DNA of 64,000 bases from a virus. Numbering within the stretch: the first letter of the stretch is position 1; each line of letters begins with the position of its first letter. The stretch spans positions 9,308 through 73,307 of IMG/VR virus record IMGVR_UViG_3300020442_001467; one strand, given 5' to 3'. The position numbers were made by a program, and so were the translations under genes. This document shows, in pieces, positions 16,701-56,700 of the stretch. Under the pieces are notes generated by a model. It was not told the DNA's origin. It was given only the letters and a program-made list of their open reading frames with translations, and made no database searches.

Positions 16701-19700
16701 GCAGTGATAATGGTGGTAACATTACTTTTGCTGCACAATTAGACTTTGGTACACAGAGATTTACTCAATTTACAGAAAGAGATTTCCTCATCACTGTCCT
16801 AGACAAAGGTGGTTCTGACCTAGTAGAAACTGGCGATGTTGTTTATGTTTCTTCAGAGTTTGTCAAGATTCTGAATACTACAGATGCTACCTCTGGTTTG
16901 TCTTCTGGTAGTATCACCCTGACTTTCCCTGGTAACTACTTTGGCAACAACGTAACCAACTTCCCCAAACTGAAGTTGACTGCTACCATTGAGGTCTCAA
17001 AAGGTAGACCAAAACTCAAGACAGCAATTAAGAATAAGAGAGTCGTTATCCAATCTCCTGGAGACCAGGTTCTACCTCTCCGTGGTTTGGACTATGATAG
17101 CGACAGCACCGAAGTATTCTCCTATTCAGATGCATTCCGTATCAGATACATCTATGAAGGATCATCTTCTGCTCCCCCAACTGTTGATGTCAATGGCAAT
17201 CTGGTTGTTGGTACAGATCTTACTAACAGATTTACTTTTGATGATGGACAAAGGGATACATTCTATGACGTATCCAGAATCGTTCTGAAACCTGGATTTA
17301 GTCCACCAACAGGTCAACTAGTTGTTGCTTTCGATTACTTCGAGCATTCTCAAGGAGACTTCTGCACTGTTGACTCTTACATCCATGAAGCAGGTGTAGT
17401 CCTAGATGAGATTCCTGATTTCAACTCTAACGTTCATGGCAACGTAAGTCTGAAGAATGTTATTGACTTCAGACCAAAAGTAGACTCTACTGCAATTATT
17501 CCTGGATATCAGGACACATCACTACTGTCACAATCAGAGTACATCAACTTCATTGGACCTGGTGGTTCTGTTTCTAGCACACCATCTTCTGCTAGAAATC
17601 TTCCTTACACTATCTCATTCAGTGAGTCACAGTTCCTTGACAGAATTGATGGCGTCTTCCTCACCAAGAAGGGCGAATTCGTTGTCAAGAAAGGTAATGC
17701 ATCTCTTAACCCAAGCAAACCAGAGATTATCGAAGATGGCATTCCTCTCTACTACATGTTCATCCCTGCGTTTACGAAGTCCAGCAAGGATGTAAGAATT
17801 ACTCCTGTTGACAACCGTCGTTACACAATGCGTGACATCGGTAAACTAGAGAAGCGTATTGAACGACTTGAGTATTACACTACGTTGAGCATTCTTGAGC
17901 AGCAAGCTCTCAACATGCAAGTCAAAGATACTCTTGGTATTGATAAGACAAAGAGTGGTTTCTTGGTTGATAACTATGAAACTCATAATGTCGGTAACGT
18001 CAAGTCTATCGACCACCTCTGTTCTATTGATGCACAACAGTCTGTATTGAGACCTCAATCTAAAGAAGACAGTTTTACACTCAAAGAAGTCAACAGAAGA
18101 GATGACCAGAGAAACATTTCTGGATATACAAACTCTAATGGTGTTATCACACTTCCATACACCAACGTTGTGTATGCACAAAATCAATTTGCAACTAGTA
18201 CAGTAAATCCAAACCCATTCGTTGTTCTACAATATGTTGGCGATGCTGCACTAATGCCAAACATCGACCAATGGTATAACAGTGCAGTTGCACCGTTGGT
18301 AACCGAAAACAATACTAATCTGTTCTCTGTCTTCTTGGCAAAACAAGATGCACGAGTAGCATTCTCTAGTATCTACAACTCCTTTGTAATTAACTGGGTC
18401 GGTGTAAACAAAACCTTCTATAACTTGAAGAGTTTTGCAGAGAACAACGGAAGATCTGCCGAGTCTACTGTGAGCAGTGCTGCCATTGGGTCCTCTTCTA
18501 ATGTCAGTCCACAAAACAATGAGATTGCGAAGGGAGTCGGATACAAGACAGTTAATGGAACTAACGTATCTAATGCACTGAAGTTCTATGCCAGATCTGT
18601 TCCTGTTAAGTATGTCGTAAGACGTATGAAACCAAAGACGAAACTACACGTCTTTATGGAAGGCAGAGACATCTCTAGATGGATTAACCCAGACTCTAGA
18701 TTTACTGGTATTGCTGGAAACTCTTCTACTACATTTGGTAGTGGTATTACAACAGATCAATATGGCAATGCTAGCGGTATCATTCTAGTACCATCGGGAT
18801 ATGCACCTAGAGAGAATTCTTTCTGGACTGGTAACATCGATACCATGCTATATGATGACACCTCCGAAGAAGTATATTTCTCCACAGGTATCAAGACAAT
18901 CAGATTTACTTCTAGTTCTACTGATGCTCCTATTACTGATGTAAATGGAGTCAGTTCTTTCGCTGAAGTCAAGTTCTATGCTACTGGTATTCTGCCAGAG
19001 AACCCTGCATCTATTATCTCTACTGCACCAGCATTCTTCAAAGCAAACGAAGGTGTACAGGAGATTGATAGTAACACAGAGAACAAAGAAAGACCAAACC
19101 CAATGGCACAGACTTTCAAAGTCGAAAGCTTTGAGGGTGGTATGTTTGCAACAGGCGTTGACCTGTTCTTCTCCGAGAAGAGTGCTACTGTTCCATTAAG
19201 AGTTTATCTCTCTAACGTAGAAGCAGACAAACCTGGTAAGTACATCCTTCCTGGATCTATCAGGACTCTCTATCCAGATACTTTCCTGAAGGTATATTCT
19301 TCTGGAAATATTACTATTCAACAGGGAGAAGATGTCACTGGCAACAGAAGTCTTGCTAAAGGACCTATTGCTAAAGTTCTTGATAGAAACAATTTTGAAG
19401 TTACCCCTTCCAGTAATGGCGAGATCTCTCTAACAAATGAGCAGACTTATACGTTCATCTTGAATAATCACAACGGAAGAGATTTCCTACAGAACGAAGA
19501 TTTGACTATCGGCACAGTTACTGCATACAACAATGCTAACAATGCTACAGTAGGTCTGAAGATTGCTAAAGACTCTGGTCGTGTATCCAAACTGAATATT
19601 ACCAATTTGGGTTCTGGATACGAAAGCGCAACCATCACTATTGAAAGTCCACAACTACCTGGCGGAAGCAACGCTACTGGATCTGTTAAAGTATCTAGTG

Positions 19701-21877
19701 GTCAACTGTTCCTTGCCGATGTAAGTCTTGCTGGTAGAGGATATACCGAAGCACCATCTGTTGTTATCAGAGGAACTGGTGCTGGTAATAATGGCGCTGT
19801 TATCGAATCCGAGATTGAAATCGACGAACCCGCTGTAAGAATGGGTGTCGCAGTCGATCCTGAAGGTGGCATTAAATCCACCACGCCTACACGTTTCAAC
19901 TTCGAGTATCCTGTTTATCTACAAAATGATACCGAGTATGCACTCAATATTGAGTGTGATGCTGTTGAATACAAACTATGGTCTTCCAAGTTGGGAGAAG
20001 AAGATATTTCTTCTGGTCTGGTTGTCAATGCACAACCTCTCCTTGGATCTCTATTCAAGTCTCAAAACACTGCTAACTGGGAAGAAGATCTATTTGAGGA
20101 TATCAAGTTCAATCTATACAGAGCAGAATTCGATACTTCTAGACCTGGTGAACTGGTTATCAAGAACGAGGATCTGGGATACGAAAAACTAAAATCTGAT
20201 CCTTTCGAGACTTATGCTCTTGCCAACAGCACAGCAACTTCTCCTCTGTTCAAAAACAACAGCAACATCATTAAGGTATATCACAGAGATCATGGTTTCG
20301 AGACCACTGGAGATTCTAAAGTATTCTTCAGAGGACTGCCTGATTTCGCTGGATATGATGCCATCGAACTAGAGTCCACCCTATTCCAAGTTTCTAATGC
20401 AGGCATTGACTCTTACAATATCGTTGGACCATCTAGAGCATCTGATACTGGATTCTTCGGTCAAGATGCAGTTCTAGCATCTTACAATAGAAAGTACGAA
20501 AAACTCTACGCACAAATTCCTTACTTGCAAGTCAGTGGAACTTCTATTGACAGCATGGTAAAAACCACCAATGTTGTTCCTGTTGATTCCAACACTACCA
20601 ACTACACTTCATATTCTATGACAGATTATGAGACAACTTTCTTGAATGAGGAACAATACTTCCTGAATCAAAAGTTGATTGCATCTCCAATCAATGAGAG
20701 TCTCAATAATCTAGAGGGATCTTTGATGTACAAATTGACGATGAAGACCGAGAAGTCACATCTGTCTCCTGTTGTTGACTTGAGATCTGCTTCTGCAAAG
20801 ACTGTCAGCAATAGAGTAGAAAATTCTGTAGGAACAGAAGGAAGATATGGTAAGAGATATCAAGAAGTTCAATTGTTCCCTGTATACAGATTCACTATAC
20901 AAGGAAACGAGAGCGGCGGTAATCTTGTTCCTATCACCATTGATCAAAATGTCACTGGCGTAACTTCTGGTGCAGAATCTGAAGTCCTGCGTGTACGTGA
21001 TAATGACATCTTTGTTAAGATCAAAAACTCTGTAAACTTTGTCTTGGGCGAGACGCTGTACTTCAGTACCCAATCTGCTTCTGGTGGTGATCTAGATGGA
21101 ATTACTGTAGTGGTTGCAAACTCTGGAATCTTTAATGAAATTCCAGAGTTTGTAGTTGGTTCCACAGTTACTGCATTCAATCCTTCAGTAAGAACCGAAA
21201 AGTATGATAATAAAGTCAGTGGTAAAGTAGTCTTCTGGGATTCAAACACCAAGACATTAACTCTTGAAAATGATAAGAGACCTATCAATGATGACTACAC
21301 CAGTGAAATTACACTGGGTAGTGACTTTGCTAGAACTGCAACCACGAGTCTACAAACATCGGATGTCTTCAGAGTCGGTGATCTAATTGACTTTAAGAAT
21401 GCCTCTTTCGAGACATCCAAGTTTGCTGAAATTAAGGCAATGTCGTTTGGAAATGGTGTTGACTTTGTTGCAGAAAATGGTTCTGTGAATACATCTGGTG
21501 TATCCAAGTATGTAACTAAAGAGATCTCCCTAGCAAGTTCTGCTTCTTCACTGAATACTAAATTGACTGTCAATGCAACCGATGTTAATAACATCCAAGT
21601 TCTGTACAAGATCAAACCAGAAGCATCGCAACAGAAATTTGATGATATCAGTTGGACCTATTTCAATGGAGATGGTTCTTCGGATAATGATGTCATTGCT
21701 ACAGCACAGAATAGTATCTCTGGACAGTATGAATCTCAAGATGCATATCAAGAACTATCATTCACCGCGAGTGATATTCCTGACTTCGCATCCTTTGCTA
21801 TTAAGATTGTTATGAAATCTGATAATCCTTCTTATGTTCCCAAAATTCAGGACATGAGAACTGTTGCTTCTTTCTAA
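13757..21877 (+). CDS. VrlC-like (DUF4815) large virion structural protein, 2706 aa
   Basis: MPQKTNL..APYFDDY...VLYRPGYPVQGRELN, APGAHR, LARRTYDESGDY and RRYTMRDIGKLEKRIERLEYYT motifs typical of this cyanomyovirus family after gp8. Confidence 0.85.
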   Translation: MPQKTNLKAAPYFDDYDSRKDFYKVLYRPGYPVQGRELNTTQSILQNQIESYGKYAFKQGDLVVPGEVGLNKKLDFVKLSSVSEVAVNVDGELVYQKYDIDGLVGQKINGLSSGVIAIVQTVVKATENNSDTLYVKYLTAGDSGDEETFRQGETLEVVDGINSPLLVVGTDGSVLPTSVAVLNPDTNETTFVDSGAMGFGSAVQVEEGVYFVNGYFVRNDSGLIVVDGYSDNPSVKVGFKIDETLVTPEDEPSLYDNAFGSSNYAAPGAHRLQITLNLVKYQFEQTPDKNFIQLLSIKNGVIQKQVKQAAYNTLENTLARRTYDESGDYVVENFDVDIREFYQRDGNFGLYRAGVDGTVGPNGISATEAADKLIATVGAGKAYVRGFEIVNKETKYLEIDKARETLARDNVTIKSNGLASFTLTNVYNTLPLNAEGADLTAYPTIFLNAAYNDGTIGFNNLEDVTEYRQTISRRGQGFDKDDAIKTIWVQASADLGLIDDTSISDSPGAGKLDLRTLYFVQTRTDTGGVATTNTVKCLSFAKVTRPEIGDVNAQFLQLTVAGRKDLLDDFFIEYDDNVATRRRFLYTSLANVQQEVNNVGYIVDYSDSIVPVIGVAKPKDFTLVKRPEGFNQDTDIIISRGKLADGRQTYNGNFDLSYFNPVFFTRLFVDSPVTPAFAPGKYIYGTTSGAYGIVEGSSNGYMSLGRSLFVKTLYGNFLPGETINSEEGSVLRIPKNNTISHFVVQRQGTGYVAGSKINVNGTLFESADIEVGIDGGTVYKIVIKNRDAVQTEFAAPPICEVTGANTIAVGIAPVLYRDTVLTYTAQNVKSLYSEFGSNNKFSADIETTEGSLSDTRNVTESTFSGTKGYKFIECNAFGSDASLILVQGDIIQFNDDTGRVNKFTVELVTTPRGTDKSRIYLNGALPDTMTAKTVIRQRGKINNGSTSTLIFPTGSKEVGSLVKSTEDTKLTYYIRRDFVTTGSDNGGNITFAAQLDFGTQRFTQFTERDFLITVLDKGGSDLVETGDVVYVSSEFVKILNTTDATSGLSSGSITLTFPGNYFGNNVTNFPKLKLTATIEVSKGRPKLKTAIKNKRVVIQSPGDQVLPLRGLDYDSDSTEVFSYSDAFRIRYIYEGSSSAPPTVDVNGNLVVGTDLTNRFTFDDGQRDTFYDVSRIVLKPGFSPPTGQLVVAFDYFEHSQGDFCTVDSYIHEAGVVLDEIPDFNSNVHGNVSLKNVIDFRPKVDSTAIIPGYQDTSLLSQSEYINFIGPGGSVSSTPSSARNLPYTISFSESQFLDRIDGVFLTKKGEFVVKKGNASLNPSKPEIIEDGIPLYYMFIPAFTKSSKDVRITPVDNRRYTMRDIGKLEKRIERLEYYTTLSILEQQALNMQVKDTLGIDKTKSGFLVDNYETHNVGNVKSIDHLCSIDAQQSVLRPQSKEDSFTLKEVNRRDDQRNISGYTNSNGVITLPYTNVVYAQNQFATSTVNPNPFVVLQYVGDAALMPNIDQWYNSAVAPLVTENNTNLFSVFLAKQDARVAFSSIYNSFVINWVGVNKTFYNLKSFAENNGRSAESTVSSAAIGSSSNVSPQNNEIAKGVGYKTVNGTNVSNALKFYARSVPVKYVVRRMKPKTKLHVFMEGRDISRWINPDSRFTGIAGNSSTTFGSGITTDQYGNASGIILVPSGYAPRENSFWTGNIDTMLYDDTSEEVYFSTGIKTIRFTSSSTDAPITDVNGVSSFAEVKFYATGILPENPASIISTAPAFFKANEGVQEIDSNTENKERPNPMAQTFKVESFEGGMFATGVDLFFSEKSATVPLRVYLSNVEADKPGKYILPGSIRTLYPDTFLKVYSSGNITIQQGEDVTGNRSLAKGPIAKVLDRNNFEVTPSSNGEISLTNEQTYTFILNNHNGRDFLQNEDLTIGTVTAYNNANNATVGLKIAKDSGRVSKLNITNLGSGYESATITIESPQLPGGSNATGSVKVSSGQLFLADVSLAGRGYTEAPSVVIRGTGAGNNGAVIESEIEIDEPAVRMGVAVDPEGGIKSTTPTRFNFEYPVYLQNDTEYALNIECDAVEYKLWSSKLGEEDISSGLVVNAQPLLGSLFKSQNTANWEEDLFEDIKFNLYRAEFDTSRPGELVIKNEDLGYEKLKSDPFETYALANSTATSPLFKNNSNIIKVYHRDHGFETTGDSKVFFRGLPDFAGYDAIELESTLFQVSNAGIDSYNIVGPSRASDTGFFGQDAVLASYNRKYEKLYAQIPYLQVSGTSIDSMVKTTNVVPVDSNTTNYTSYSMTDYETTFLNEEQYFLNQKLIASPINESLNNLEGSLMYKLTMKTEKSHLSPVVDLRSASAKTVSNRVENSVGTEGRYGKRYQEVQLFPVYRFTIQGNESGGNLVPITIDQNVTGVTSGAESEVLRVRDNDIFVKIKNSVNFVLGETLYFSTQSASGGDLDGITVVVANSGIFNEIPEFVVGSTVTAFNPSVRTEKYDNKVSGKVVFWDSNTKTLTLENDKRPINDDYTSEITLGSDFARTATTSLQTSDVFRVGDLIDFKNASFETSKFAEIKAMSFGNGVDFVAENGSVNTSGVSKYVTKEISLASSASSLNTKLTVNATDVNNIQVLYKIKPEASQQKFDDISWTYFNGDGSSDNDVIATAQNSISGQYESQDAYQELSFTASDIPDFASFAIKIVMKSDNPSYVPKIQDMRTVASF

Positions 21878-31570: not shown

Positions 31571-34500
31571 ATGGTATTCTCCTACGCTGGTACTGGAAGA
31601 ATGCCCCAGTTTGTTGCTGTGAAGGCACTGGGGTTAATTTCGTACAGCTATACATCAGCGATTGAGGAGCAGTTTTTATATCTAGATTTTGGTGCGCTGG
31701 GTCGTGCATACTGGGTAATTGCAGACCACGCAAGTAAAGTAATTGAAGATTACAAAGATGATCAAATAGTTGACTTGGTGGAGTCAGGCGGTCCCCTGAA
31801 CCAAGTTGATTATGGATCTATCACAGAAGTAGAAGCATACGCCACGGATGACTGGGGCGAAATCACAGTCACAGCAAATATTCAGGCAATGGGTCGCACC
31901 CATTTCCACTCGCTCACCACCTGGTCTGTTATCAAGACTTGGGTTGGTTCTGGTACAGTATTCGAGTTCGGCGGATCCAGATACAGACTGGATGCTCCAT
32001 ACATCGTTTCTGGAACACTGTGGGTTGCTGGCAATGCCAACACTCATTATGTACCTGCGATTGCTGCGGAGGGTCTACTACCCCTCCGTAGTGACACTAA
32101 AATTGCTTATGCTCCTAACTGGAACGCATTCGGCACCCTGTTCAGCGGTAGCTTTACTGGAGAGGCTGTCGTCAAGGTATCCCCAGAGGATAGCAAGACA
32201 TTATTTAACGTCCATGGTGATGCTGGTGTCAGCTTCAGACCCAACTGGGTTGGTTCTGGCGTCCTGTTTAACTTCAGCACCACTACCTTCAAACAGACAT
32301 ACGATTATGTCGGTGAAGGAACTCTATTTGGTATCTCTTCTACAGAAGAAAAGGTTGTCTGGGATTACAACAATTCCAGCATCGATTACTTTACCTATGA
32401 GAACTTCGGATCGGTTGCTGAATCACCAATCGAATCCATCACGATTCAGTCGATTGCTAATGAGACAATCCAGAGTCGTGCAAACGAAAGAATTATTGAT
32501 CTAGTTGTAGCTGGATCTACTTCTGGTGCATTCCTAGACTTTGGCAGTATCCTCACTGATGGTGAGCAGACTCCATCTACTGTCGGACTAGATTGGGGTC
32601 ACATTCTCACAAACCAGACGGATTATCCATTCGGTCTGTTCCCAATCAGTGGTACTGCCAAGCAAGTATTTACTCCCAACTTTGTTGGTTCTGGTGGACT
32701 GTTCGCATTCGTCAATGGTCGCGGCAGAACGAAACCCAGATGGATTGCCTTTGTCAACATCGGAATCTTTGGTGCATCGAAGACAAACTTCAGTCTTCTA
32801 CACCAAGGTTCTGGTTCTCTATTCAGCATCAACAATGCAGAAGACAGCAGAGCATACGCTTATAACGGTTCTGGCGCTCTCTATGCCTTCTCTGGTGCCG
32901 CCGAGGCAGTTGGGTTCAACCCACCAGAAGATACCGCTCTACTGCCACTACAGGGCGCTGCGAAGGTGTCCTTCGCCCCCAACTGGGTTGCAGAAGGTAC
33001 AGTCAAGGCAGAAGGCGCAGCAGTCGAGAGACAGACAGATCATTACAAAGGATCTGGAACTCTATTCAACTTCGAGACAGGGATCGAGAAAGTTGCATAT
33101 CACTATAGCAGCACATCCAATGCTATCTTCCAGTATCGCAACTATGGATCTGTTGCTGATCAACCAATTGAATCTATTACGATTCAATCTATTGCTAATG
33201 AGACCATTGAAAGTCGTAAGGACGACAGAATTATTGACCTGGTAGTAGGTGGCACTACTTCTGGATCTTACCTGGATTATGGTCCAATTCTTATCGATGG
33301 CGAGGACGCTCCAGAGACTGTTCGCGAAGACTATGGTTCCATCATGGAATCCATCTCTCGCTACGCAATGGGCGATCTGTTGGTACATGGTACTGCAGCA
33401 GTCAGGAGAGAGTTCTCCTACGTTGGTAAAGGTGATCTGTTTGCCTTCGTCGAGGGTCGTGGTAGAACGAAACCCAGATGGATTGCCAATGTCAATATTG
33501 AGGTCCGTGGCGAGGGTCAAGATGCAGTCGTCAAACGCTTCGTTGGCGATGGTAATCTATTCAACTTCGAGAAAGCAGAAGAAAGGAGAACCTTCGGTTA
33601 CGAAGTTCAAGGAACTCTCTTCACGTCTGGCGAAGCTGCTATCGCATTCGAGAGAGCACCATATCCTGCATATGTCCTCTTCGATGTTACTGGCAACACA
33701 AAAGTTGCATTCGTACCCAACTTCAATGGTTCTGGTGTTGCCAGTATCGATGTCGAGCACGTCGAAAGAACTACATTCAGCGAGGTTGGATCTGGTGTCC
33801 TCTTCGACATGGGCAACCTGGTCGAGAGAAGGACATACCACTACAGTCATACTTCCGACACTATATTCACTCCTCTGGATTATGGTTCGGTTGCTGCCAA
33901 TCCAATCGACTCCATTACGATCCAGTCTATCGCTAATGATACGATTGAAAGTCGTAAGGACCAGAGAATTATTGATCTTGTAACTGGTGGTTCTACCTCT
34001 GGTTCTTACTTCGATTATGGAACTGTCAGTGACTTCTATCCATCTATCACGGATGACTATGAAGGTATCACAGAGACAGTCACCAGATATGCGATGGGTG
34101 GTCCACAAATCAGTGGTGCTGCCGATGTCAACTTCAGACCTGTCTACATTGGTTCTGGAGACATTACTATCAATGTCAGCACTATCATCAGAGTGCTGCC
34201 CAGATGGATTGCCTTTGTACCCATCGAGTTTACAGGTGTTGCAACAGACACCTTCACCAAAGCATACAAAGGTTCTGGTATTCTTCCTCTACCTGTCAGC
34301 ACGACAGATGCAAGAAGCTTTGCATACGAAGGCAAAGGAGAACTATTTGCTATCAACGGTGGGGAAGAAGCAGTCGCATTCGACTACCCACGTCAAGATC
34401 CTGTATTTACAATTACAGGCGAAGCAAAAGTTGCATTCGTACCCAACTTCAATGGTTCTGGTACAGCAACCCTTTCTGGTACACTCGTCGAGAGAGCTGC

Positions 34501-37500
34501 ATTCAATCCTCCTGCGCGTGGAGATCTCTTCAGCTTCAACAATCTCGATGAGCGTAGAACATATCATTACAACTCCAGTTCTATTGATCTACTCAACAGA
34601 ATCAGCTATGGTTCTGTTGCTTCGCCAGTCATTGATTCTTGGGTCATTGCTGACCACGCAACCAAGGTCATTCAGGACTACAGAAATGATAAGATCGTCG
34701 ATCTTGTCGAGGGATCTGGTGGCGACTACTTCGATTATGGATTCCTAGAACAAGAAAATGTTGGTGGTCTTCCCAACATCAATACTCCAGATGCTACCGA
34801 AGATTATCAGTTCATCAGAGATCCAGATCTCGATGCTTCCCGATACCCCTTCGGTCATCTATTCAAGTTCTCTGGTCGTTCTGGTGGAGTCAAGGTTGTC
34901 ATCAATCTGCGTCACATCGCAGTTCTGGACAAACCAACACTCAAGATTTCTGGCGATGTATTCGTCAAACTTCCCAACAAACACGAGGGAAGTGGTGTTC
35001 TATTCAACACTGGTGGTGCAGCAGAGTCTGCAACATTCAGAGAAGTCAAGGACGGTCTATTCGAGTTCGTTGGATTCGCTGCAACCAGAAGAATCCCCAA
35101 CTTCAATGGCAGCGGTACTATCACATTGGATGGTGCATCCAGCAGTGCAGTTGCATTCGCAGGATTCCAAGAGAACACGATTGTTCTTCGCGGTATCTCT
35201 GGCGTCAAGTACACACCATCCTATGCTGGAACTGGTGTTATCTCCACATTGTCTGGTGCTGCCGAGGCAGTTACAGCAAGTCCAGACGATCTCATTGGTC
35301 TGTTCGACTTTGTTGGAACGGCAACAGAAAAAGCAACAGCAGCATACACTGGTTCTGGTTCACTGTTTGCATTGTCTGGCGCAGTCGAGGCAGTTGCTGT
35401 TGCAGAAGAGAAGAGAAATCTTATCAAGATCAGCGGCAACGCTGGCGAGAGATTCATCCCGAACTTCAATGGTTCTGGTGCTCTATCTGTACTATCTGGC
35501 GCAGCAGAATCCAGAACAGCAAGTCCAGACGATCTGTTCACTCTGTTCGACTTTACTGGTCGTGGCACGGTCAGGGCAACTATTGCCGAATCTGGATTCG
35601 CTCTTCTCTCTGTATCTGGCACAACAGAACCAGAGGTCCTCACGTTTGCAGAGCAACCATTTGGTACTGCTACGATCAGTGGCAATGCTGGAGAGAGATT
35701 TGTTCCCAACTGGGTTGGTTCTGGTACTATCGCAACCTTGTCGGGTGCAGCAGAATCTGCAACATTCAATCCTCTGGAGAGACAGCTTCTGTTCTCCATG
35801 GGTGGCGTTGCTACAGAAGCATTTGCTGCAGCACCCACAATCAAGGGAGCAGAGATCAAACTCTCTGGAACCACCGCTCCAGAAATTCGCACATTTGCAG
35901 AGCAACCATTCGGGGTTATTCCTGTCAGTGGTATTGCAGAAGTCATCAACGTCGATGTATATCTGGCAGAAGGTACTCTGTTCTCTGGTGGATTCACTTC
36001 AGAATCTGTCACGTTCAAGATTCCTCCAGTCAGAGATGGAGACATTCTCTTCCGTGGTTCTGCAGTCGAGGCAGTTGGATTCAATCCACCAGAAGAAACT
36101 GCACATCTTCTCCTTTCTGGAGAGGTTGTCATTCCTCTTCGCACATTCGCAGAGCAACCAACCGTTCGTGTTGCTATCAGCGGTGTTGCAATCGAGAAGA
36201 ACACCGAAGTATATGTTGGAACTGGTGCTATCTTCTCCAACGGATTCACCTCCGAATCTGTCACCAGAAAACTCCCAGAGTTCACAGCACACCTCAATGT
36301 TACTGGTCTCGCAGAAGAGAGAGCAACATTCAGAGAGATCTTCTTTGGTTCCCTCTTCAAGTTCAGAGGATCTGCAGGTCGCGCACTCCTCACGTTTGCA
36401 GAGCAACCACAGACTCTATCCAAGATTAGTGGTGTTGCTGCTACCACCAGAGCAAGAGACTTCGTTGGCGAAGGCAACATTGCAACTCTTTCTGGTGCTG
36501 CCGAGGCAGTCACTTTCAATCCTCTGGAAAGAGATCTGCTCTTCGATGTTACTGGCATCGCTGCAGAAAGAAGAACAAATGTATTTGTTGGTTCTGGTCA
36601 AATCAAGGTCTACCCAGAAGCAGCAGACATCAGATTCATCCCCAACTGGAATGCAGAAGGTGTCATTCCTGTCAGTGGTACTGCGGTCGAACGGGTTGCA
36701 AGAGACGAGGTTGTTCAGGTCAACATCGGAACATTCTCTGGTGCAGCAGAGTCTGTCACCTTCAATCCACTCGAAAAAGATATGCTGTTCTCTGTTGGAG
36801 GCAGAGCAGCATACAGAACTTCTGTATCGGAAGTCAAACTTGCCAACGCAAGACTCTTCGCAGACGACAACAACGGAGCAACTACCAGGATACACGTTGG
36901 TTCTGGAACAGCAACTCTATCTGGTGCTGGTCGTATTGTCATTACTCTCTCCTTCGTTGGAGACATCAGAATTGGTACATTCTCTGGTGCAGCAGAAGCA
37001 GTCACCTTCAATCCACTGGAGAAGGATCTACTATTCTCTGCATCTGGTATTGCATCCCTACGTTCCACTCGCGCTTACTCTGGAACTGGTTCTCTCTTTG
37101 CAGTCAACGGTGCAGCAGAATCCAGAACTGTTGTTCCACCAGCAGATGGTCTGTATGCAATCAATGGCGAAGCGAAGATTGTTATTACAGTCTCCCACAT
37201 TGGCGATGGCAATCTCTTCAGTTTCGTCAAGGGTGCAGAAAGCTTTACTTACGATTACGTTGGGGAGCAAGTTCTCTTCAATCTATCTGGCGAAGCAGTC
37301 GAGAGAATTACCAATGCAGAATCTGGATTTGGTTCTATCTTCTCCATCGGTGGTGCTGCAGAAAGAGTTGCCTTTGTACCAAGTCTGCTTGCAGATGTCA
37401 ACATTGCTGGTCGTGCAGCAACTCCAAGATCCAGAGTATTCACTGGTTCTGGAGACCTATATGCATTCGACGGTGCAGCAGAGTCCAGAACAATTGCTTA

Positions 37501-37957
37501 CGAGAACGTCGCAATCTTCGACTTCCTCGGTCAGGTCAAACCTGCTATCACCAAGGCATATGTTGGCGAAGCAGAGATCGAAGTTTCTGGAGCAGCGGCA
37601 GTTGCATTCGTCAGAGCACCTTATCCTGGTCAAGCAGACGCTCAACTGTCTGGCACAGCAACAGAGAGCACAACTGTCAACCCACCAGAAGACGGCACAG
37701 AGATTGCAACCTCTGGCGAGGCAAAGGTTCTTCGCTCCTTCGGTTACGAAGGATCTGGTCAACTCAAAGTACACGGCGATACCATTATTGGTATTTCTCT
37801 CCGTATCTTTGGTACTGGATCTATCAAGGTCGATGTTCGCACGAGATACTTCCCACTACTCCAGCACACACCAGATGTTCACATCTACATCGCTGGCAGC
37901 GCAGCAACTGTCAAGATCGATGTTGCTCCACCACGTACCTATGGATGGATTATTTAA
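31571..37957 (+). CDS. 2128-aa repeat-rich putative virion/fibre protein
   Basis: Dozens of ~20-aa GSG-x-L/F...GAAE repeats interrupted by YGSVA..PI.SITIQSIAN.TI.SR...RIIDLV modules; structural-gene context. Confidence 0.75.
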   Translation: MVFSYAGTGRMPQFVAVKALGLISYSYTSAIEEQFLYLDFGALGRAYWVIADHASKVIEDYKDDQIVDLVESGGPLNQVDYGSITEVEAYATDDWGEITVTANIQAMGRTHFHSLTTWSVIKTWVGSGTVFEFGGSRYRLDAPYIVSGTLWVAGNANTHYVPAIAAEGLLPLRSDTKIAYAPNWNAFGTLFSGSFTGEAVVKVSPEDSKTLFNVHGDAGVSFRPNWVGSGVLFNFSTTTFKQTYDYVGEGTLFGISSTEEKVVWDYNNSSIDYFTYENFGSVAESPIESITIQSIANETIQSRANERIIDLVVAGSTSGAFLDFGSILTDGEQTPSTVGLDWGHILTNQTDYPFGLFPISGTAKQVFTPNFVGSGGLFAFVNGRGRTKPRWIAFVNIGIFGASKTNFSLLHQGSGSLFSINNAEDSRAYAYNGSGALYAFSGAAEAVGFNPPEDTALLPLQGAAKVSFAPNWVAEGTVKAEGAAVERQTDHYKGSGTLFNFETGIEKVAYHYSSTSNAIFQYRNYGSVADQPIESITIQSIANETIESRKDDRIIDLVVGGTTSGSYLDYGPILIDGEDAPETVREDYGSIMESISRYAMGDLLVHGTAAVRREFSYVGKGDLFAFVEGRGRTKPRWIANVNIEVRGEGQDAVVKRFVGDGNLFNFEKAEERRTFGYEVQGTLFTSGEAAIAFERAPYPAYVLFDVTGNTKVAFVPNFNGSGVASIDVEHVERTTFSEVGSGVLFDMGNLVERRTYHYSHTSDTIFTPLDYGSVAANPIDSITIQSIANDTIESRKDQRIIDLVTGGSTSGSYFDYGTVSDFYPSITDDYEGITETVTRYAMGGPQISGAADVNFRPVYIGSGDITINVSTIIRVLPRWIAFVPIEFTGVATDTFTKAYKGSGILPLPVSTTDARSFAYEGKGELFAINGGEEAVAFDYPRQDPVFTITGEAKVAFVPNFNGSGTATLSGTLVERAAFNPPARGDLFSFNNLDERRTYHYNSSSIDLLNRISYGSVASPVIDSWVIADHATKVIQDYRNDKIVDLVEGSGGDYFDYGFLEQENVGGLPNINTPDATEDYQFIRDPDLDASRYPFGHLFKFSGRSGGVKVVINLRHIAVLDKPTLKISGDVFVKLPNKHEGSGVLFNTGGAAESATFREVKDGLFEFVGFAATRRIPNFNGSGTITLDGASSSAVAFAGFQENTIVLRGISGVKYTPSYAGTGVISTLSGAAEAVTASPDDLIGLFDFVGTATEKATAAYTGSGSLFALSGAVEAVAVAEEKRNLIKISGNAGERFIPNFNGSGALSVLSGAAESRTASPDDLFTLFDFTGRGTVRATIAESGFALLSVSGTTEPEVLTFAEQPFGTATISGNAGERFVPNWVGSGTIATLSGAAESATFNPLERQLLFSMGGVATEAFAAAPTIKGAEIKLSGTTAPEIRTFAEQPFGVIPVSGIAEVINVDVYLAEGTLFSGGFTSESVTFKIPPVRDGDILFRGSAVEAVGFNPPEETAHLLLSGEVVIPLRTFAEQPTVRVAISGVAIEKNTEVYVGTGAIFSNGFTSESVTRKLPEFTAHLNVTGLAEERATFREIFFGSLFKFRGSAGRALLTFAEQPQTLSKISGVAATTRARDFVGEGNIATLSGAAEAVTFNPLERDLLFDVTGIAAERRTNVFVGSGQIKVYPEAADIRFIPNWNAEGVIPVSGTAVERVARDEVVQVNIGTFSGAAESVTFNPLEKDMLFSVGGRAAYRTSVSEVKLANARLFADDNNGATTRIHVGSGTATLSGAGRIVITLSFVGDIRIGTFSGAAEAVTFNPLEKDLLFSASGIASLRSTRAYSGTGSLFAVNGAAESRTVVPPADGLYAINGEAKIVITVSHIGDGNLFSFVKGAESFTYDYVGEQVLFNLSGEAVERITNAESGFGSIFSIGGAAERVAFVPSLLADVNIAGRAATPRSRVFTGSGDLYAFDGAAESRTIAYENVAIFDFLGQVKPAITKAYVGEAEIEVSGAAAVAFVRAPYPGQADAQLSGTATESTTVNPPEDGTEIATSGEAKVLRSFGYEGSGQLKVHGDTIIGISLRIFGTGSIKVDVRTRYFPLLQHTPDVHIYIAGSAATVKIDVAPPRTYGWII
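33699..34462 (+). repeat. exact 38-nt direct repeat (33699-33736 and 34425-34462) inside the 2128-aa gene
   Basis: CAAAAGTTGCATTCGTACCCAACTTCAATGGTTCTGGT present twice. Confidence 0.9.
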
Positions 37958-37960
37958 TAG

Positions 37961-37968
37961 TATAAATA
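37961..37968 (+). promoter_or_regulatory. late promoter TATAAATA
   Basis: Exact consensus 26 nt upstream of ATG 37994. Confidence 0.85.
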
Positions 37969-37993
37969 ACATTGGTATCCTAAATTAATTTTA

Positions 37994-38452
37994 ATGACTA
38001 CCCAGGTACAGTTTAGAAGAGGTACTACTGCTGAACATGCTCACTTCGCGGGAGCGCAGGGTGAGTTGACTATTGATACTGATAAGAATATGGCGGTTGT
38101 CCATGATGGACAAACGAATGGTGGATTTGACGTTTTTCGTGCTCGGTGGGAGTATCTAAATCAAAGTGTCACACTTGGCACCAGTCTTCGTTATCTCGTA
38201 GACTCGTCTGGAGGACCACTTACGTTAACTCTACCACTATATAATAATCAGTTGGTTCCCAAAGCAGGGGACACCTTGGAGTTCATTGATATTAATTTTA
38301 CGTGGGATACAAATAATGTAACAATCGTCGATCCAATTGGAAGAGAATTTCAAAACACTTTTGGAGTTATTTCCAGTCCTTTAGTATTCGACTTGAAAGG
38401 AGCGAGAGTGCAACTAATTTGGGACGGTAACTACTGGAGGGTAATTGTATGA
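37994..38452 (+). CDS. fibre-associated protein with Mtd-N-like N-terminus
   Basis: QVQFRRGTTAEH..F.GAQGELTIDTD...VVHDG motif, then a DSSGGPLTLTLP...GD.LEFID fibre domain. Confidence 0.7.
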   Translation: MTTQVQFRRGTTAEHAHFAGAQGELTIDTDKNMAVVHDGQTNGGFDVFRARWEYLNQSVTLGTSLRYLVDSSGGPLTLTLPLYNNQLVPKAGDTLEFIDINFTWDTNNVTIVDPIGREFQNTFGVISSPLVFDLKGARVQLIWDGNYWRVIV

Positions 38453-38856: not shown

Positions 38857-41800
38857 ATGGCAGATTTCAGATTAGGCAGACTTAAGTTTAATTGGAGGGG
38901 CGACTGGACAGTTGCCACTGCATACGTCATCGATGACATCGTTAAGTTTGGCGCAAACACCTTTGTTTGTATTTCCAACCACACGTCAGCATCGAATGAG
39001 GCACAATGGTATGGTTCGGATGGTGCCAGATGGCAAGTCCATACCGAAGGCATTTACCATAGAGGTGAATGGGCGGATGCAACCTTCTATAGAACTAATG
39101 ATATTGTCAAGTATGGCAATGATCAGTATAGGGTTGTCAACCCCCACACTTCAGCAGGATCCTTCGCTTCTGCAAACTTTGTCTCTTATGCTAACGGACT
39201 GAAGTTTGAAGATACGTGGGATTCCAACACTGAATACCAACAGGGAGACATCGTAACCTTTGGTGGTTATTCATACATCGCTCAAGCAATCACTACTGGT
39301 TCTAGACCTAACCAGAACCTTGGCACTGATTGGGAGATCCTAACTACTGGTTTCAAGGTAGTTGGTACATGGAGCAACAGCACCGAGTATAAGCCTGGTG
39401 ACGTTGTACTTCTTGGTGGTAACTCTTACGTTGCTAAAACAACCAATACAAACTCCACACCTGGATCTAATCCTTCTGATTGGGACTTCGTTGTTGGTGG
39501 TTTCACCTGGAGAGGTACTTGGAACAACACCACAACTTATCAGCCTGGTGACGCTGTTACCAGAGCAAGTAACTCCTACATCTGTGTTGCCGAGACAACT
39601 GGCAACGAACCTGAACTAGATGTTAACGGAGACTACTGGAACTCCCTGACCCAAGGCGCACAGTCTAACGTCCTAACTGATCCTGGCGATGTTCTTTACA
39701 TCTCTGGTTCTGGTGCTGCAAGACTGCCTATCGGAAATAATGGTCAAGTTCTAACTGTTGATAGCAACGGTTTCCCTGCATGGCAAAATAATAATGTTAC
39801 CGATCCTGTTTTCTATGTCACCACAAATGGTGATGACCTGAATGACGGTTCTAACATTAGTAAAGCATTTGCTTCACTTGCTCATGCTGTAAACACCGTT
39901 ACTGGTCCTGCTACCATTTATGTCAAGGCAGGTATCTATAACGAAACTCTACCAATCATCGTTCCAGAGAACGTTTCGATCATTGGTGACAACATGAGAA
40001 CGTCCACCATTAAACCAAATGTTGGACAACCTTCTAACATCCAAAGACTAACACTCGCAACGATTCCTCTCGCTTCTGAAAGAGTCATTGGCGAGACATG
40101 CACAAACGGTGCTGGCGATAAGACCGCACAGATCATGGATGTTAGAGACGGTGGTGCTACCATCGACGTTATGCCACTGACTGGTGGTGTCTGGACTACC
40201 TCCGATGCTTTCGATAACGGTGGTGCTGATATTGCACTCAATACAGTATCTACTCTCAATAACGAGAACGCAACTCTCTTCTATCTGTCTAACAGATCGA
40301 TGCTGAAGGATCTCGTTATGGACGGCATGGCAGGATTCGTTCCTTCTTCTACCGATCCGAAGGACATGAACACCTCTACTCCAGATGGTGTATTCGTCAG
40401 ACTGAACCCCAACTCCCCAATCACCAAGTCTCCTTACGTTTCGCAGTGTTCTGCATTCTCACAGACTGGTATTGGTGCAATTGTTGACGGTGGTGTTCAC
40501 GAGAAGTATGACGGAACTGGAACTCCTTCCAACAAGTCTATTGTTTTTGACTCCTGGACTAACATCCACGAAAGCGGTGGTGTAGGTTTCTGGATTACGA
40601 ACAACGGCGCTGCTGAAATCGTATCCTGCTTCACTTACTATTGCCACATCTCCTACACCTCTACTAGAGGTGGTAGAATCAGATCCTTGGCAGGTAACTC
40701 CTCCTGGGGTACTTACGCTATTGTTTCTTCTGGTTTCAACGAGAATGAAGCTACTCTCGATGGATTCATCGACGGTATCGAACTCAACTACGATCCTCTT
40801 ACCCTATCTACTGGATTCTCTTTTGAGACTGCAGAGCAAGTTACTGGCGGCACTTCTGGTGCGGTTGGTGAAGTTGCTAGCTTCCAACCTTCTGCAGATA
40901 AGATTCTTATCCGTCCTCTCAAAGGTAACTTTACACAGAACGAAGTTGTTACTGGTAGCGTTTCTACAGCAACTGCAACTCTGGTCAATAACGCTGACGC
41001 CCAGAAGGGTATGTCAGGTTTCACCTTTGTTCTTGGCGGTCTAACTGCTGCTCCTGACCCAGGTGGTTCGATTGAATACATCACTGGTCCTGGTGGACTT
41101 GGTTCCGACCTCTTCACTTATGTAATTGCTAACTCTTCTTACTCTGGACCTACTGGTCGTGGAGAACTGACCGTAACCAGAGGACTACTTGGTTCTTCTG
41201 CTACAACTCATGATGGTTTGAGCACTGTTGCTAGATACCAAACTGGTACTGCAACGTCTCTAACTGCTCCTATCAGTGATGCAGTCAGCGTTATCATCCA
41301 AGTTGCTTCGATTACTGGTATTAACACTGGTGGTTATATCATCGTCGAAAACGAGATGATGGAAGTTGTCTCCTTCCCAACTGCAACTTCGGTCGAAGTT
41401 ATCAGAGGAGTAGAAGGCACTACTGGTGCTGCACATAACTCTGGCGTCACCGTCAGAGCACTTCAGATCAAGGTTCCTAGCGAAACAACTACCGCTAGAG
41501 ACCTAACAGCATCTGACACAATTATTCTTGTTGAATCGTCCACGGGTACTCTATCCTCCGACTATATCAAGATTGACAATGAGTTCATGCAGGTTTCTAA
41601 TTCTGCAACAATTACAACTGGTACTGTTCTGGTTGTTCTTGCAGAAGAAAAACCAACTGCAACTTATGACCGTCAAGCTACAAGAATCAGATACCTGTAT
41701 TCTCAAGTCAGACTAACTGGTCACGACTTCCTGGATATCGGTACTGGTAACAAAACCCAGACTAACTGGCCAGGTCTGCCACTTTCGGCACCTGCACCAG

Positions 41801-42129
41801 GTAATGAGGTTACTGAAAACTTCCCTGGTCGTGTGTTCTTTGTATCCACGGACCAAGATGGTAACTTCACCGTTGGTCGTTACTTCAAAGTTAACCAGGC
41901 AACTGGTAGCACAACCTTGAACGCATCTTCCTTCGACCTGTCTGGTCTATCGTCCTTGAGACTTGGTTCTATCGGTGCTCAAATCGGTGAATCCATTAAT
42001 GAGTTCACAAGCGACGTTACATTCTCTGCTAATAGCAACTCTAAAGTTCCTACGCAGAAGGCAGTCAAGACTTACGTTGACACAAAGACGAAGACTAAAG
42101 GCTTCACTTTCTGGGCGGGAGCAATGTGA
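38857..42129 (+). CDS. tail fibre-like protein with tandem CBM5/12-like repeats and a beta-helix-like region
   Basis: Five W.....Y..[GND]D.V..G...Y repeats; FYVTTNGDD.NDG...AFASL...TIYVKAGIYNE pectin-lyase-like entry motif; KVPTQKAVKTYVD C-terminus. Confidence 0.75.
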   Translation: MADFRLGRLKFNWRGDWTVATAYVIDDIVKFGANTFVCISNHTSASNEAQWYGSDGARWQVHTEGIYHRGEWADATFYRTNDIVKYGNDQYRVVNPHTSAGSFASANFVSYANGLKFEDTWDSNTEYQQGDIVTFGGYSYIAQAITTGSRPNQNLGTDWEILTTGFKVVGTWSNSTEYKPGDVVLLGGNSYVAKTTNTNSTPGSNPSDWDFVVGGFTWRGTWNNTTTYQPGDAVTRASNSYICVAETTGNEPELDVNGDYWNSLTQGAQSNVLTDPGDVLYISGSGAARLPIGNNGQVLTVDSNGFPAWQNNNVTDPVFYVTTNGDDLNDGSNISKAFASLAHAVNTVTGPATIYVKAGIYNETLPIIVPENVSIIGDNMRTSTIKPNVGQPSNIQRLTLATIPLASERVIGETCTNGAGDKTAQIMDVRDGGATIDVMPLTGGVWTTSDAFDNGGADIALNTVSTLNNENATLFYLSNRSMLKDLVMDGMAGFVPSSTDPKDMNTSTPDGVFVRLNPNSPITKSPYVSQCSAFSQTGIGAIVDGGVHEKYDGTGTPSNKSIVFDSWTNIHESGGVGFWITNNGAAEIVSCFTYYCHISYTSTRGGRIRSLAGNSSWGTYAIVSSGFNENEATLDGFIDGIELNYDPLTLSTGFSFETAEQVTGGTSGAVGEVASFQPSADKILIRPLKGNFTQNEVVTGSVSTATATLVNNADAQKGMSGFTFVLGGLTAAPDPGGSIEYITGPGGLGSDLFTYVIANSSYSGPTGRGELTVTRGLLGSSATTHDGLSTVARYQTGTATSLTAPISDAVSVIIQVASITGINTGGYIIVENEMMEVVSFPTATSVEVIRGVEGTTGAAHNSGVTVRALQIKVPSETTTARDLTASDTIILVESSTGTLSSDYIKIDNEFMQVSNSATITTGTVLVVLAEEKPTATYDRQATRIRYLYSQVRLTGHDFLDIGTGNKTQTNWPGLPLSAPAPGNEVTENFPGRVFFVSTDQDGNFTVGRYFKVNQATGSTTLNASSFDLSGLSSLRLGSIGAQIGESINEFTSDVTFSANSNSKVPTQKAVKTYVDTKTKTKGFTFWAGAM

Positions 42130-53779: not shown

Positions 53780-56700
53780 ATGGCAAAACGACAAATTAGA
53801 GACTATGTATTCTCCCCAGGCATCGCTGGTGTCGGTACTCTAAAGATCCTGGACAAGGTAGATGTTGATCAGATTCTGATCATCACCAATGCTACCAGCA
53901 ACCAATTTTTATATAACTTCAGTGATCCGTCCTTACCGATTTCGGTAGACTTTACCTCAACTACAGACGGATCTGACCCAGACTTCCCATACAGTAATAC
54001 ATTGTCAAATGGTGTCACCACCATTACGTTCCTGTATGATACTTCTGCACAGTTTGCTACTGACAAGATCCTAATCTTTGTAGAAGCAGAAGAGCAAAGA
54101 ACTAGACCATACGACTTCGGTACTGATGCTATCGAACGTATGAGGTTTGCAGAACCTCAATCGATGCTTGACGCTGACTTTGAGTATGGCATTCAACCAA
54201 CCAAGTGGCAGTCTCTTGACCTGCTGCGTGGTTATCCTTCTATCTACGAAGTTCCTGGATCTGACATCGGTCTCGTTGCTGTTACAACCGACGCATCTGC
54301 TGGATCAGGTGCTATTGGTCCATCGAAAATTACTGTTGATACAGTCCTGGATCATGGTTTGACTGTAGGCGATCCTGTTTCTATTAAGGGTCTGGATGAT
54401 GCTGTTTCTGGTTTCGCAAAAGCAGAAGGTTCGTTCATCATCGACGCTGTTCCTAGTACAACACAGTTTACCTACTATGCTAAAGCAAAAGTAGGAACAA
54501 CTCCTGCTACTCCACTGCTGTCCTCATTTACTGTACTGAAGCAGGCAGGATTCTACACTGGTGCTGCGATTGGTACTAACCCTGTCTTCAGTGTAGTAAC
54601 CAATGGTGCTTCGGGTAGCTTCCAAACAAAAGGATCTAACCCACAAGGGACGACAAGACTTGGTGTACAACCAGCTTCTGCACTACCTCCCATCGGTGCT
54701 CCTCTATCTGGAATCGGTCTTCCAACTGGTACACAGGTAACTTCGGTCATCAACACAAACGCTACACTAAACATTACCGACTCTTTCACTGCTCCAGTGT
54801 CAGAGATCACATTCAACGATACTGCTTCTATTGAGGTAGGTTCTTCTCTGGATGATGGTGGTGGTAATGCTATCTTCGTTACTAACATTGCTGGAAATGT
54901 TGTAACTCTATCTTCACCATACCAAATCAATAAGACTGGTAACAGCTTCGTTTCTCAACCAACGGCAGCAACTCCACTGAACTTTGGTAACGGTACTGGA
55001 GCACAGTTTGATATCACCAGAGAGAATGGTTCATACTCAACTGTTGTTATCAACACCCAAAACTTCTACAATCAAGTAACTGGCGCATACTCTGGTCAGT
55101 TGGGTAACGGTGCAGAATTTGTTGTAGAAAGAACTGGTGGTGCATCCCCAGCATACGCCAATATCTTCACTTCTTCATCTGGTAGTGATTACTCATTAAA
55201 TGAAACTATCACTATTGATGGTGCTGATCTTGGTGGCGCAACTAGCACAAACGATCTAACTATCACAATTACTTCGGTTGGTATTAACGGAGAAATTACT
55301 GGTTTAAGTTTTACTGGTGTTGCTAGCAACCAACTACAAAATGCTGGACAAAACTTCGCTGTTGGAGAAGACCTAGTTGTATATGGTAATGCATTGGGCG
55401 GCACGTCACCAATCAATGATCTAACCATCTCCGTCACCGCAGTTGGCACATCTGGAGAAATTCTTGGGTTCAACGTTACTGGTACAGCAATTCCTTCCAC
55501 AGCAAATTATGCTGGTGTAGAACAATCTTCCACAACTGGTAGTGGTATCAATGCAGGATTCCAAATCGAAAGAATTGGTGCTGGTATCGCAACCGCACAG
55601 GTAGATAACGTCGTCATCGGCGGTACTATTGAAGGAGATGATACTTTCAGAATCACCATCAATGGAACCGATGACTATACCTATACAGCAAATGCTGGTG
55701 AAACCATTGTTGCTGTTAGAAATGGTTTGGTTAACGCTGTCAATGATCCATCAACAGGATCTAGTGTTGTACAAGCAACTACTGGTGCAACTAGTGACAC
55801 TCTGGAATTGACAGCACTTACTGCTGGTACAGCATTTACAATTTCTGTACTAACAGAAGATCAAGGTGGTAATCCTGCTGACACGCAGACGATGACTACC
55901 AACAACGTCACACCAAACGCTAGCAGCAGCACTACTCCAACGTATAACGTAGGTATTGCTAACCCTGGTCAAGCATATGCAAACGGCGATGACATTGTTA
56001 TCACTGGTGATCAACTAGGTGGTACATTTGGCACCCATGATTTAACCATCACTGTACAAACTGTTAATGCACAGGGTGGCATCACTGGTATCACTCACTC
56101 GGGTACTCCATGGGATGGTAACCAAACATACCTCAACATGAATCCAAACCCAATTGCATTCAACGCAACCTTTATTCCTAGAATTTCTAGCGGTAACTAT
56201 ACTCCAGAAATTTCTAACGCTGGTGAAGGTTACAAATTGGGTTATCAATTTATCATCCCAGGCACATCTTTGGGTGGTGCGTCACCAACCAACGATATGA
56301 CAATTACTGTCGATGACGTTGATGCTTCTGGCGCAATTCAATTAGCAAGTGCTACTGGTACACCAGTTAGTGGCGATACTATTGCATTCTTCCCAGCAGT
56401 TTCTCTGTCTGCTGCAACCACTAATGTCATTGGTTCAAACTCTACAGTTACATACTCTGCTATCGCAAAGATCAACGTAGAGTTCTCATCGAACCATGGT
56501 CTGGTTCCTGGAGATACTATTCTGACATCTATCACATCTAGTGGTAATGGTCACGATCTAGCATCTGGTCCTTTCTTCGTTGATGAAGTACCTGGTCTAG
56601 ATAACTTCACCTTCACCGCAAGATCAACGGGCAACGTCTCTGGTGGTATTACTGGTGTTGTGTATCCAAGAACCGACTCGTTCTATACACACAGACCATT

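Follow-up and report, generated by a model that had tools for sequence, protein, structure and literature searches.

Depletion of off-frame stop codons in the repeat array of a family of giant genes of T4-like cyanophages

Stop triplets in the two unused reading frames of a gene cut mistranslation short and are for this reason usually regarded as neutral or slightly beneficial. Here we analyzed a 64,000-nucleotide stretch of viral DNA (positions 9,308 to 73,307 of the IMG/VR record IMGVR_UViG_3300020442_001467, hereafter the window), in which a giant gene encoding 2128 amino acids (31571..37957, + strand) ends in an in-frame repeat array (34749..37954, + strand, with 123- and 246-nt periods) that holds a single stop triplet in its three sense frames. 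The stop depletion of this array is real, extreme, conserved and maintained by selection.

The nearest described idea is the ambush hypothesis of hidden (out-of-frame) stop codons, reportedly put forward by Seligmann and Pollock in 2004. As in the present gene, it is a matter of selection on stop triplets of unused frames, exerted through synonymous codons and tied to ribosomal frameshift errors, but the hypothesis concerns an enrichment, whereas here off-frame stops are eliminated (1 versus 87 in shuffled sequences), which makes the array a mirror image. In addition, the effect here is near-absolute, is confined to one repeat type of one gene family and is not explained by composition. The hidden-stop literature includes PMC5909447, PMC3700767 and PMC2996987. 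The PE_PGRS genes of Mycobacterium tuberculosis are likewise poor in off-frame stops and frameshift tolerance has been proposed for them, although that report's own regression attributes the depletion mainly to the content of guanine plus cytosine (GC) (PMC13328622). They share with our gene that they are repeat-rich, fast-evolving genes for surface proteins; in our case, unlike theirs, GC is 48%, synonymous shuffles still give 87 stops, and frame-shifted variants were not found in the family.

Overprinted genes of viruses and phages also have long open alternative frames within a coding gene, but here there is no constraint at the amino-acid level, synonymous divergence is almost unreduced, and both frames are open, in islands that track the repeats. 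In oligomer repeats of the type considered by Ohno, the period is not a multiple of three and all three frames give the same periodic peptide. Such repeats are, like ours, open in all three frames; the periods here are however 123, 246 and 738 nt, and the three frames encode unrelated peptides. Finally, programmed recoding at −1/+1 sites or by bypassing as in T4 gene 60 would give ribosomes a reason to occupy another frame, but the present gene has no slippery heptamer, avoids slippery junctions, and has neither a take-off stop nor a conserved trans-frame product. An earlier reading of the window from its letters only (hereafter the sequence-only reading) had known of no description of the pattern, and we found none of a stop-free phage gene that is not GC-rich in open-access papers and bioRxiv; the pattern appears to be unpublished.

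Stop codons in the unused frames of the repeat array

An automated count on the + strand of 34749-37957 found exactly two stop triplets, a TAG in the +2 frame at 36427..36429, which arises from ATT AGT (Ile-Ser), and the gene's own TAA at 37955, in agreement with the sequence-only reading, in which the former was the only stop triplet seen in any frame from 34749 to 37954. About 154 stop triplets are expected from the mononucleotide composition and about 110 from the dinucleotide composition. When synonymous codons were permuted among positions of the same amino acid, so that the protein and the exact codon usage were retained, 2000 trials gave 16.5 ± 2.5 stops in the +1 frame and 70.8 ± 5.7 in the +2 frame, with a mean total of 87 and a minimum of 65, against the one observed. 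A scarcity driven by composition was rejected on these nulls (154, 110 and 87) and on the GC of 48%. The other 32 open reading frames (ORFs) of the window carry 5-27 off-frame stops per kb in the +1 frame and 16-59 in the +2 frame, and apart from the stop-free stretches of the giant gene there is none of at least 250 nt on either strand of the 73-kb contig.

The mechanical ORF of 1076 codons in the +1 frame (34758..37988, + strand, rich in L, S and Q) that had been pointed out is present and starts with ATG. The +2 frame, which had been described as open except for the TAG and devoid of start codons, is open as stated, but it does contain one ATG/GTG/TTG, about as many as the shuffles do (1.7). 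A +2 stop 1528-1534 nt from the 3′ end is common to the window, to the Synechococcus phage S-CAM1 and to 12 IMG/VR relatives of 79-91% identity, and another +2 stop, located 37 nt from the end of the gene, is frequent too.

The avoidance is specific to the three stop codons. Among all 64 triplets in the alternative frames, these three are the ones driven to zero; triplets containing CpG and homopolymers are also depleted there, and likewise in control genes. TGG, which differs by one base from TGA and from TAG, is over-represented 2.1-fold with 99 copies, as had been noticed by eye, and UGG, UAC and UAU are enriched in the stretch. Stop triplets on the minus strand match the shuffles (102 versus 105.9 and 21 versus 19.0). 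The codon choices behind the pattern are those the sequence-only reading had described: before AA, AG or GA, NNY codons end in T once and in C 123 times, whereas elsewhere 66% of them end in T, and a neighbouring fibre gene does not make this switch (56% versus 60% ending in T). NTA is followed by a pyrimidine in 24 cases and by a purine in none, and no NTG codon stands before A. The avoided set is therefore the three stop codons of the mRNA strand, kept out by selection on synonymous codon choice and not by codon bias.

The depletion follows the repeats. A profile iterated from one 82-residue double unit detected 26 stretches that make up 68% of the giant protein and are near-continuous from residue 1139 to residue 2089; the copies are 60-83% identical in DNA, and GSG..LF and SGAAE..TFNP are among their motifs. 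Four linker modules ('..SITIQSIANETIESR..IIDLV..') separate the repeat stretches of the N-terminal half, and it is in these linkers that the off-frame stops cluster. One linker has 10 off-frame stops in 141 nt (33106..33246, + strand) and similar clusters lie on the same strand at 32398-32589, 33934-34060 and 34549-34746, while the repeat stretches between linkers, of 274 nt (32590..32862), 381 nt (33554..33933) and 489 nt (34061..34548), all on the + strand, are stop-free. In the giant gene, the off-frame stop density is 4.8 per kb inside repeat units versus 24.1 per kb outside them, and in all 11 repeat-carrying homologues it is 1.6-5 times lower inside than outside. The start-to-start spacings of the repeats (120, 123, 243-252 and 738 nt) are every one a multiple of 3, and there is no cross-frame similarity within or between 42 genes of the family, on which grounds a repeat of the Ohno type was rejected. 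The constraint is thus specific to the repeat unit, to the strand and to stops, and it is common to the gene family.

Conservation of the depletion across the family

The closest cultured relative is S-CAM1 (Kyanoviridae, Anaposvirus), with 91% DNA identity over the stop-poor stretch, and the source is an S-CAM1-like, T4-like cyanophage. The S-CAM1 orthologue differs at 294 positions in the stop-poor half and still has only 3 off-frame stops there. Differences that would create a stop in a single step number 21 in one direction and 19 in the other, whereas random mutations matched for codon position, base change and synonymous status give 42.6 ± 5.4 and 39.7 ± 5.1, and none of 2000 simulations reached so low a count. 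Among 23 listed single differences able to create a stop, 21 are offset by a change in the adjacent codon; the remaining two are real S-CAM1 stops, 37 and 58 nt from the gene end. Such compensating pairs include GGC AGC for GGT GGC, ATC AAC for ATT CAC, GAC GAT for GAT CCA, GTC AAG for GTT ACG, and GCA GAA for GTC GAA.

At greater distances the depletion persists. Of the 8000 best candidates that were scored in the protein search, at least 528 are relatives at E ≤ 1e-5, and family members range in length from 1248 to 3690 amino acids. In S-CAM3, where the protein is 37% identical, two open stretches measure 1303 and 1203 nt, and the stop-free stretches in other syntenic homologues are 1197 nt in S-SSM7, 522 nt in Sf-FS3 and 599 nt in S-SCSM2R. 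Of 37 IMG/VR loci, 17 were analyzed, and in 15 of them the last 3.2 kb of the gene contains 4-44 off-frame stops compared with 84-116 in shuffles. For the loci truncated by contig ends (L025, L027, L029, L031, L038, L043 and L044), the last 3204 nt are not the homologous region. Of the other two loci, L047 (26% identity) has 78 off-frame stops versus 128 in shuffles and one open stretch of 1285 nt, and L049 (25% identity) has neither the repeat nor the depletion. At the corresponding place in P-SSM2, next to an Mtd_N-like gene, there is an unrelated tail-spike gene of normal stop density. The sequence-only reading had asked whether orthologues keep the depletion, and those of S-CAM1, S-CAM3, S-SSM7 and the 15 loci do; because the shuffles, the coupled substitutions relative to S-CAM1 and the homologues at 30-37% protein identity agree, we conclude that purifying selection maintains it, as the sequence-only reading had supposed.

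Why the unused frames are kept open

One possible reason is that the other frames are really translated, through overprinting, programmed frameshifting or hopping, in such a way that the length or composition of a trans-frame product matters and its sequence does not, which we consider improbable. The 1076-codon ORF opens with its ATG at 34758, the +1 frame is wholly open in the window, in S-CAM1 and in 14 close relatives, and the alternative frames use commoner codons than the shuffles do (fractions of rare codons 0.103 versus 0.140 and 0.165 versus 0.208). Nevertheless, four-fold-site divergence from S-CAM1 is barely lower in the stop-free half (0.119) than in the N-terminal half (0.137) and the neighbouring genes (0.136-0.186), a small deficit of about the size that stop avoidance alone would cost. 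The substitutions relative to S-CAM1 fall mostly at third positions of the main frame, and the alternative-frame peptides are only 27-29% identical to those of S-CAM3 while the main frame is 37% identical, so that the peptides are less conserved than the protein they accompany. The +1 product has no PHROG match and no Pfam match above the cut-off (Thioredoxin_16, 17.2 bits against a cut-off of 26.5), the +2 frame has its single start codon, and the open stretches of the N-terminal half are short islands bounded by linker stops. Overprinted products, one of the causes that the sequence-only reading had offered, were rejected on the divergence and the peptide comparison in spite of the long ATG-started ORF. 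Its suggestion of recurrent frameshifting or hopping runs against the counts as well: slippery heptamers of the form X_XXY_YYZ in frame number 0 versus 3.6 expected in shuffles, homopolymer triples spanning codon junctions number 22 versus 62.8 (0.35 of the shuffle expectation, compared with 0.61-0.77 in the other giant genes), and TTT in the +2 frame (NNT followed by TTN) occurs 2 times versus 25.4. The giant gene avoids slippage rather than promoting it, and a programmed −1 frameshift was rejected on the missing heptamers and the avoided junction triples. Bypassing requires a take-off codon followed by a stop, plus a matching landing codon; it was rejected in the T4 gene 60 form because the whole stretch is free of in-frame or adjacent stops. 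Quite unlikely, too, is that open frames serve evolvability, in that an indel or an out-of-register rearrangement would give this fast-evolving host-contact gene a new full-length product and not a truncated one. This idea draws on the stop-free half being the fastest-evolving protein segment locally (11.1% amino-acid differences from S-CAM1 versus 0.7-7.4% elsewhere), on the wide range of lengths in the family, and on the frameshift tolerance proposed for PE_PGRS genes (PMC13328622). Yet main-frame proteins and alternative-frame translations of 42 family genes gave no match at E ≤ 0.01, the internal gaps of 10 pairwise alignments (66-91% identity) have lengths divisible by 3, except for a few artefacts of alignment or of the ends, indel-prone homopolymers at junctions are avoided and not favoured, and second-order selection would hardly enforce a near-perfect rule codon by codon. 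By these comparisons the stretch appears to hide no conserved protein and to record no evolutionary switching of frames.

An agent acting on the RNA itself, such as a nuclease or binding factor of the host or of a rival phage that reads UAA, UAG and UGA off the ribosome, would account for an avoided set of exactly three triplets on the mRNA strand only. We give it little credence, since the only known readers of this exact set are the release factors, since the near-miss triplets UGG, UAC and UAU are enriched, and since such an agent, which the sequence-only reading had proposed as a stop-directed nuclease, would still hit the mRNA in its linker modules (24 off-frame stops per kb) and in the neighbouring late genes of normal stop density. 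Even less credible is a passive legacy in which a chance stop-free unit was amplified with no selection on stops. The region is a repeat array, and its present state may well have originated when a stop-free unit was amplified; as a full explanation such a legacy is contradicted by units that are only 60-83% identical in DNA, by persistence of the state at 30-37% protein identity, and by stop-creating changes of which 2 were realised where about 40 are expected, with compensating changes in neighbouring codons. An unlikely but somewhat better account is that the harm lies in a termination event inside a long polysome and not in the chain that is released. After its release at an off-frame stop, a ribosome could start again close by and produce C-terminal fragments with the invariant C-terminal motif, or the gap left behind could make the 6.4-kb mRNA accessible to cleavage. 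In accordance with this, the stop-free parts of three diverged homologues contain 3- to 10-fold fewer in-frame ATG, GTG and TTG, but not fewer CTG. In the stretch of the window, ATG makes up 0.19% versus 0.84%, GTG 0 of 93 valine codons versus 5%, and TTG 5.6% versus 15.7% of leucine codons, with CTG unchanged, and S-CAM3 and S-SSM7 follow the same trend. The 35 aligned sequences share an invariant extreme C-terminus, and all three frames end within 35 nt, before the start of the next gene. On the other side, 6 in-frame start codons are left, so that purging about 87 stops seems excessive; off-frame starts in the +1 frame are not depleted (121 versus 98 in shuffles); and the other long genes of the region are unpurged, as are the linker modules of the same mRNA. 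In-frame ATG, GTG and TTG are several-fold scarcer than in other genes both in 34751-37954 of the window and in the homologous parts of two relatives (L003 and L005); Cys is absent and Met is 0.19%.

The explanation that we favour, tentatively, is that part-length fibre chains are harmful, so that ribosomes that have lost their frame must not be released inside the repeat. To our knowledge, release factors on the ribosome are the only readers of exactly UAA, UAG and UGA, and because the signal is also specific to the sense strand, termination by ribosomes off the main frame is most simply the selective agent. These ribosomes must come from the main frame and not from internal initiation, since the +2 frame, with its single start codon, is the most purged (from 70 to 1). 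Loss of frame seems to be especially costly in this gene because slippage contexts are unusually strongly avoided, and because quick stopping, the usual remedy, is avoided too, the harm points to the released part-length chain or to the termination event itself. Selection would then act at translation and keep a ribosome that slipped within the repeat from meeting a stop, where a release factor would set it free. If cleanly released, a part-length repeat chain would be a dominant-negative fragment that harms fibre assembly. Fragments that end within the repeat could join full-length chains of the presumably oligomeric fibre, or template onto them, and spoil them, whereas a chain that runs into a nonsense tail of hundreds of residues may be inert, assembly-incompetent or degraded. 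The gene also avoids other routes to part-length chains, namely slippery codon junctions and, suggestively, in-frame internal starts that would lead to C-terminal fragments.

A more specific and rather doubtful proposal is an 'anti-ambush' quality control, in which the unused frames carry no stops, frame-lost ribosomes run on and their products are disposed of, possibly with the aid of a phage transfer-messenger RNA (tmRNA), which tags chains from broken mRNAs for degradation. The distribution of tmRNA genes fits our favoured explanation, with phylogeny as a confounding factor. ARAGORN detected permuted tmRNA genes in S-CAM1, S-CAM3, S-SSM7 and Sf-FS3, that is, in 4 of the 5 cultured lineages with the giant gene. 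These genes of the two-piece type lie at 1279-1593 of L007 (S-CAM1), 1571-1885 of L009 (S-CAM3), 1460-1811 of L008 (S-SSM7) and 1452-1779 of L051 (Sf-FS3), and two more lie at 1470-1779 of L052 (S-CRM01) and 1442-1759 of L053 (S-CBWM1). The six genes mostly abut or overlap tRNA genes, their tags resemble ..ANNIVAFSR.., and the records annotate them as 'hypothetical protein', as tRNA-Arg or not at all. The tmRNA link is a weak, loose and phylogenetically confounded lead. Small heat-shock proteins (sHSPs), which also co-occur, were dropped as a lead because they are not specific, being widespread in cyanomyoviruses (PMC3827213).

Several points weigh against our favoured explanation and its tmRNA extension. 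The invariant C-terminus (..PxRxYxWII) is missing from a frame-shifted chain with a nonsense tail just as from a truncated one, and the lesser harm of the frame-shifted chain is assumed. The alternative frames have fewer rare codons than the shuffles and show no sign of built-in stalling that would hand ribosomes to tmRNA, and every frame meets a stop at most 35 nt past the gene end. Avoidance of T runs explains the TTG deficit just as well, and GTG is also absent from an S-CAM3 control gene (0 of 90). Other giant fibre-like genes of the same phage are undepleted, which makes a special harm of fragments of this protein ad hoc. An AlphaFold 2 monomer model of the repeat (635 residues, 35-row alignment) reached a predicted local distance difference test score of 27 and is unusable for a fold search. 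As for tmRNA, none was detected in S-SCSM2R, which has the gene family, Sf-FS3 has one together with weak depletion, and S-CRM01 and S-CBWM1 have one with no stop-free stretch of at least 220 nt in a giant gene, no family member having been detected in these two phages by a search whose empty answer proves nothing.

Genomic setting and significance

The giant protein matches the profile of phrog_11522, a giant cyanophage protein of unknown function, over its whole length (E = 0, 4002.6 bits, residues 1-2128 on profile positions 1-2130 of 2130). Pfam detected no domain in the 2128 amino acids, a PDB sequence search returned 0 matches at E ≤ 1, and the ESM Atlas gave viral clusters without names at 0.88-0.89, under the lead level of 0.9. 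The gene lies directly upstream of an Mtd_N tail-protein gene, beyond which lie genes for a protein of 130 aa and for a tail-fibre protein of 1090 aa that has CBM_5_12 repeats, and the order around the giant gene is kept in S-CAM1, S-CAM3, S-SSM7 and Sf-FS3. From this synteny we assign the giant gene, as a probable member, to the tail-fibre module. It ends with tandem in-frame stops, TAA TAG (37955..37960, + strand); past this end the +2 frame closes at 37963 and the +1 frame closes at 37986, which is 6 nt ahead of the next gene's ATG at 37994. The extreme C-terminus, ..APPRTYGWII (37900-37954, residues about 2110-2128), holds the five invariant residues P, R, Y, W and I of the motif, which spans aligned family sequences of 28-96% identity; this invariance suggests that it may be a docking or assembly signal.

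The 152-aa tail protein downstream (37994-38452) matches the Mtd N-terminal domain with its first 41 residues (PF18454, E = 2.5e-14) and is 65% identical over 49 residues to mtd, the tropism determinant of Bordetella phage BPP-1. The 1090-aa tail-fibre protein (38857-42129) has four matches to the carbohydrate-binding module CBM_5_12 and is labelled 'polymorphic membrane protein' in S-CAM1 records. Three more giant ORFs, of 3031, 2706 and 1673 amino acids, lie in the same structural region (2708-11803, 13757-21877 and 53780-58801); their off-frame stop density is normal, and homopolymers and junction triplets containing CpG are generally avoided in them. The four sequencing runs that were aligned consist of contigs, and those from RNA libraries span parts of the giant gene, which is not proof of transcription; nothing in them bears on the use of frames. 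Paired events in these aligned contigs, in which one nucleotide is left out and another put in 2-6 nt apart, and joints between repeats look like alignment effects of diverged relatives and were set aside.

A natural gene family thus does the reverse of what is usually expected of off-frame stops, and over kilobases and deep divergence it does so with a precision close to perfect. Gene finders will report false ORFs of kilobase length in such genes, and design rules based on codon optimisation or on 'hidden stops' may fail for the proteins they encode. S-CAM1 can be grown on Synechococcus WH7803, so that the family offers a tractable system for the cost of frame-lost ribosomes and for the poisoning of assembly by truncated chains of repeat fibres. 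If the 'anti-ambush' design is true, the products of frameshift errors can be potent assembly poisons, and which codons the untranslated frames contain is under strong selection.

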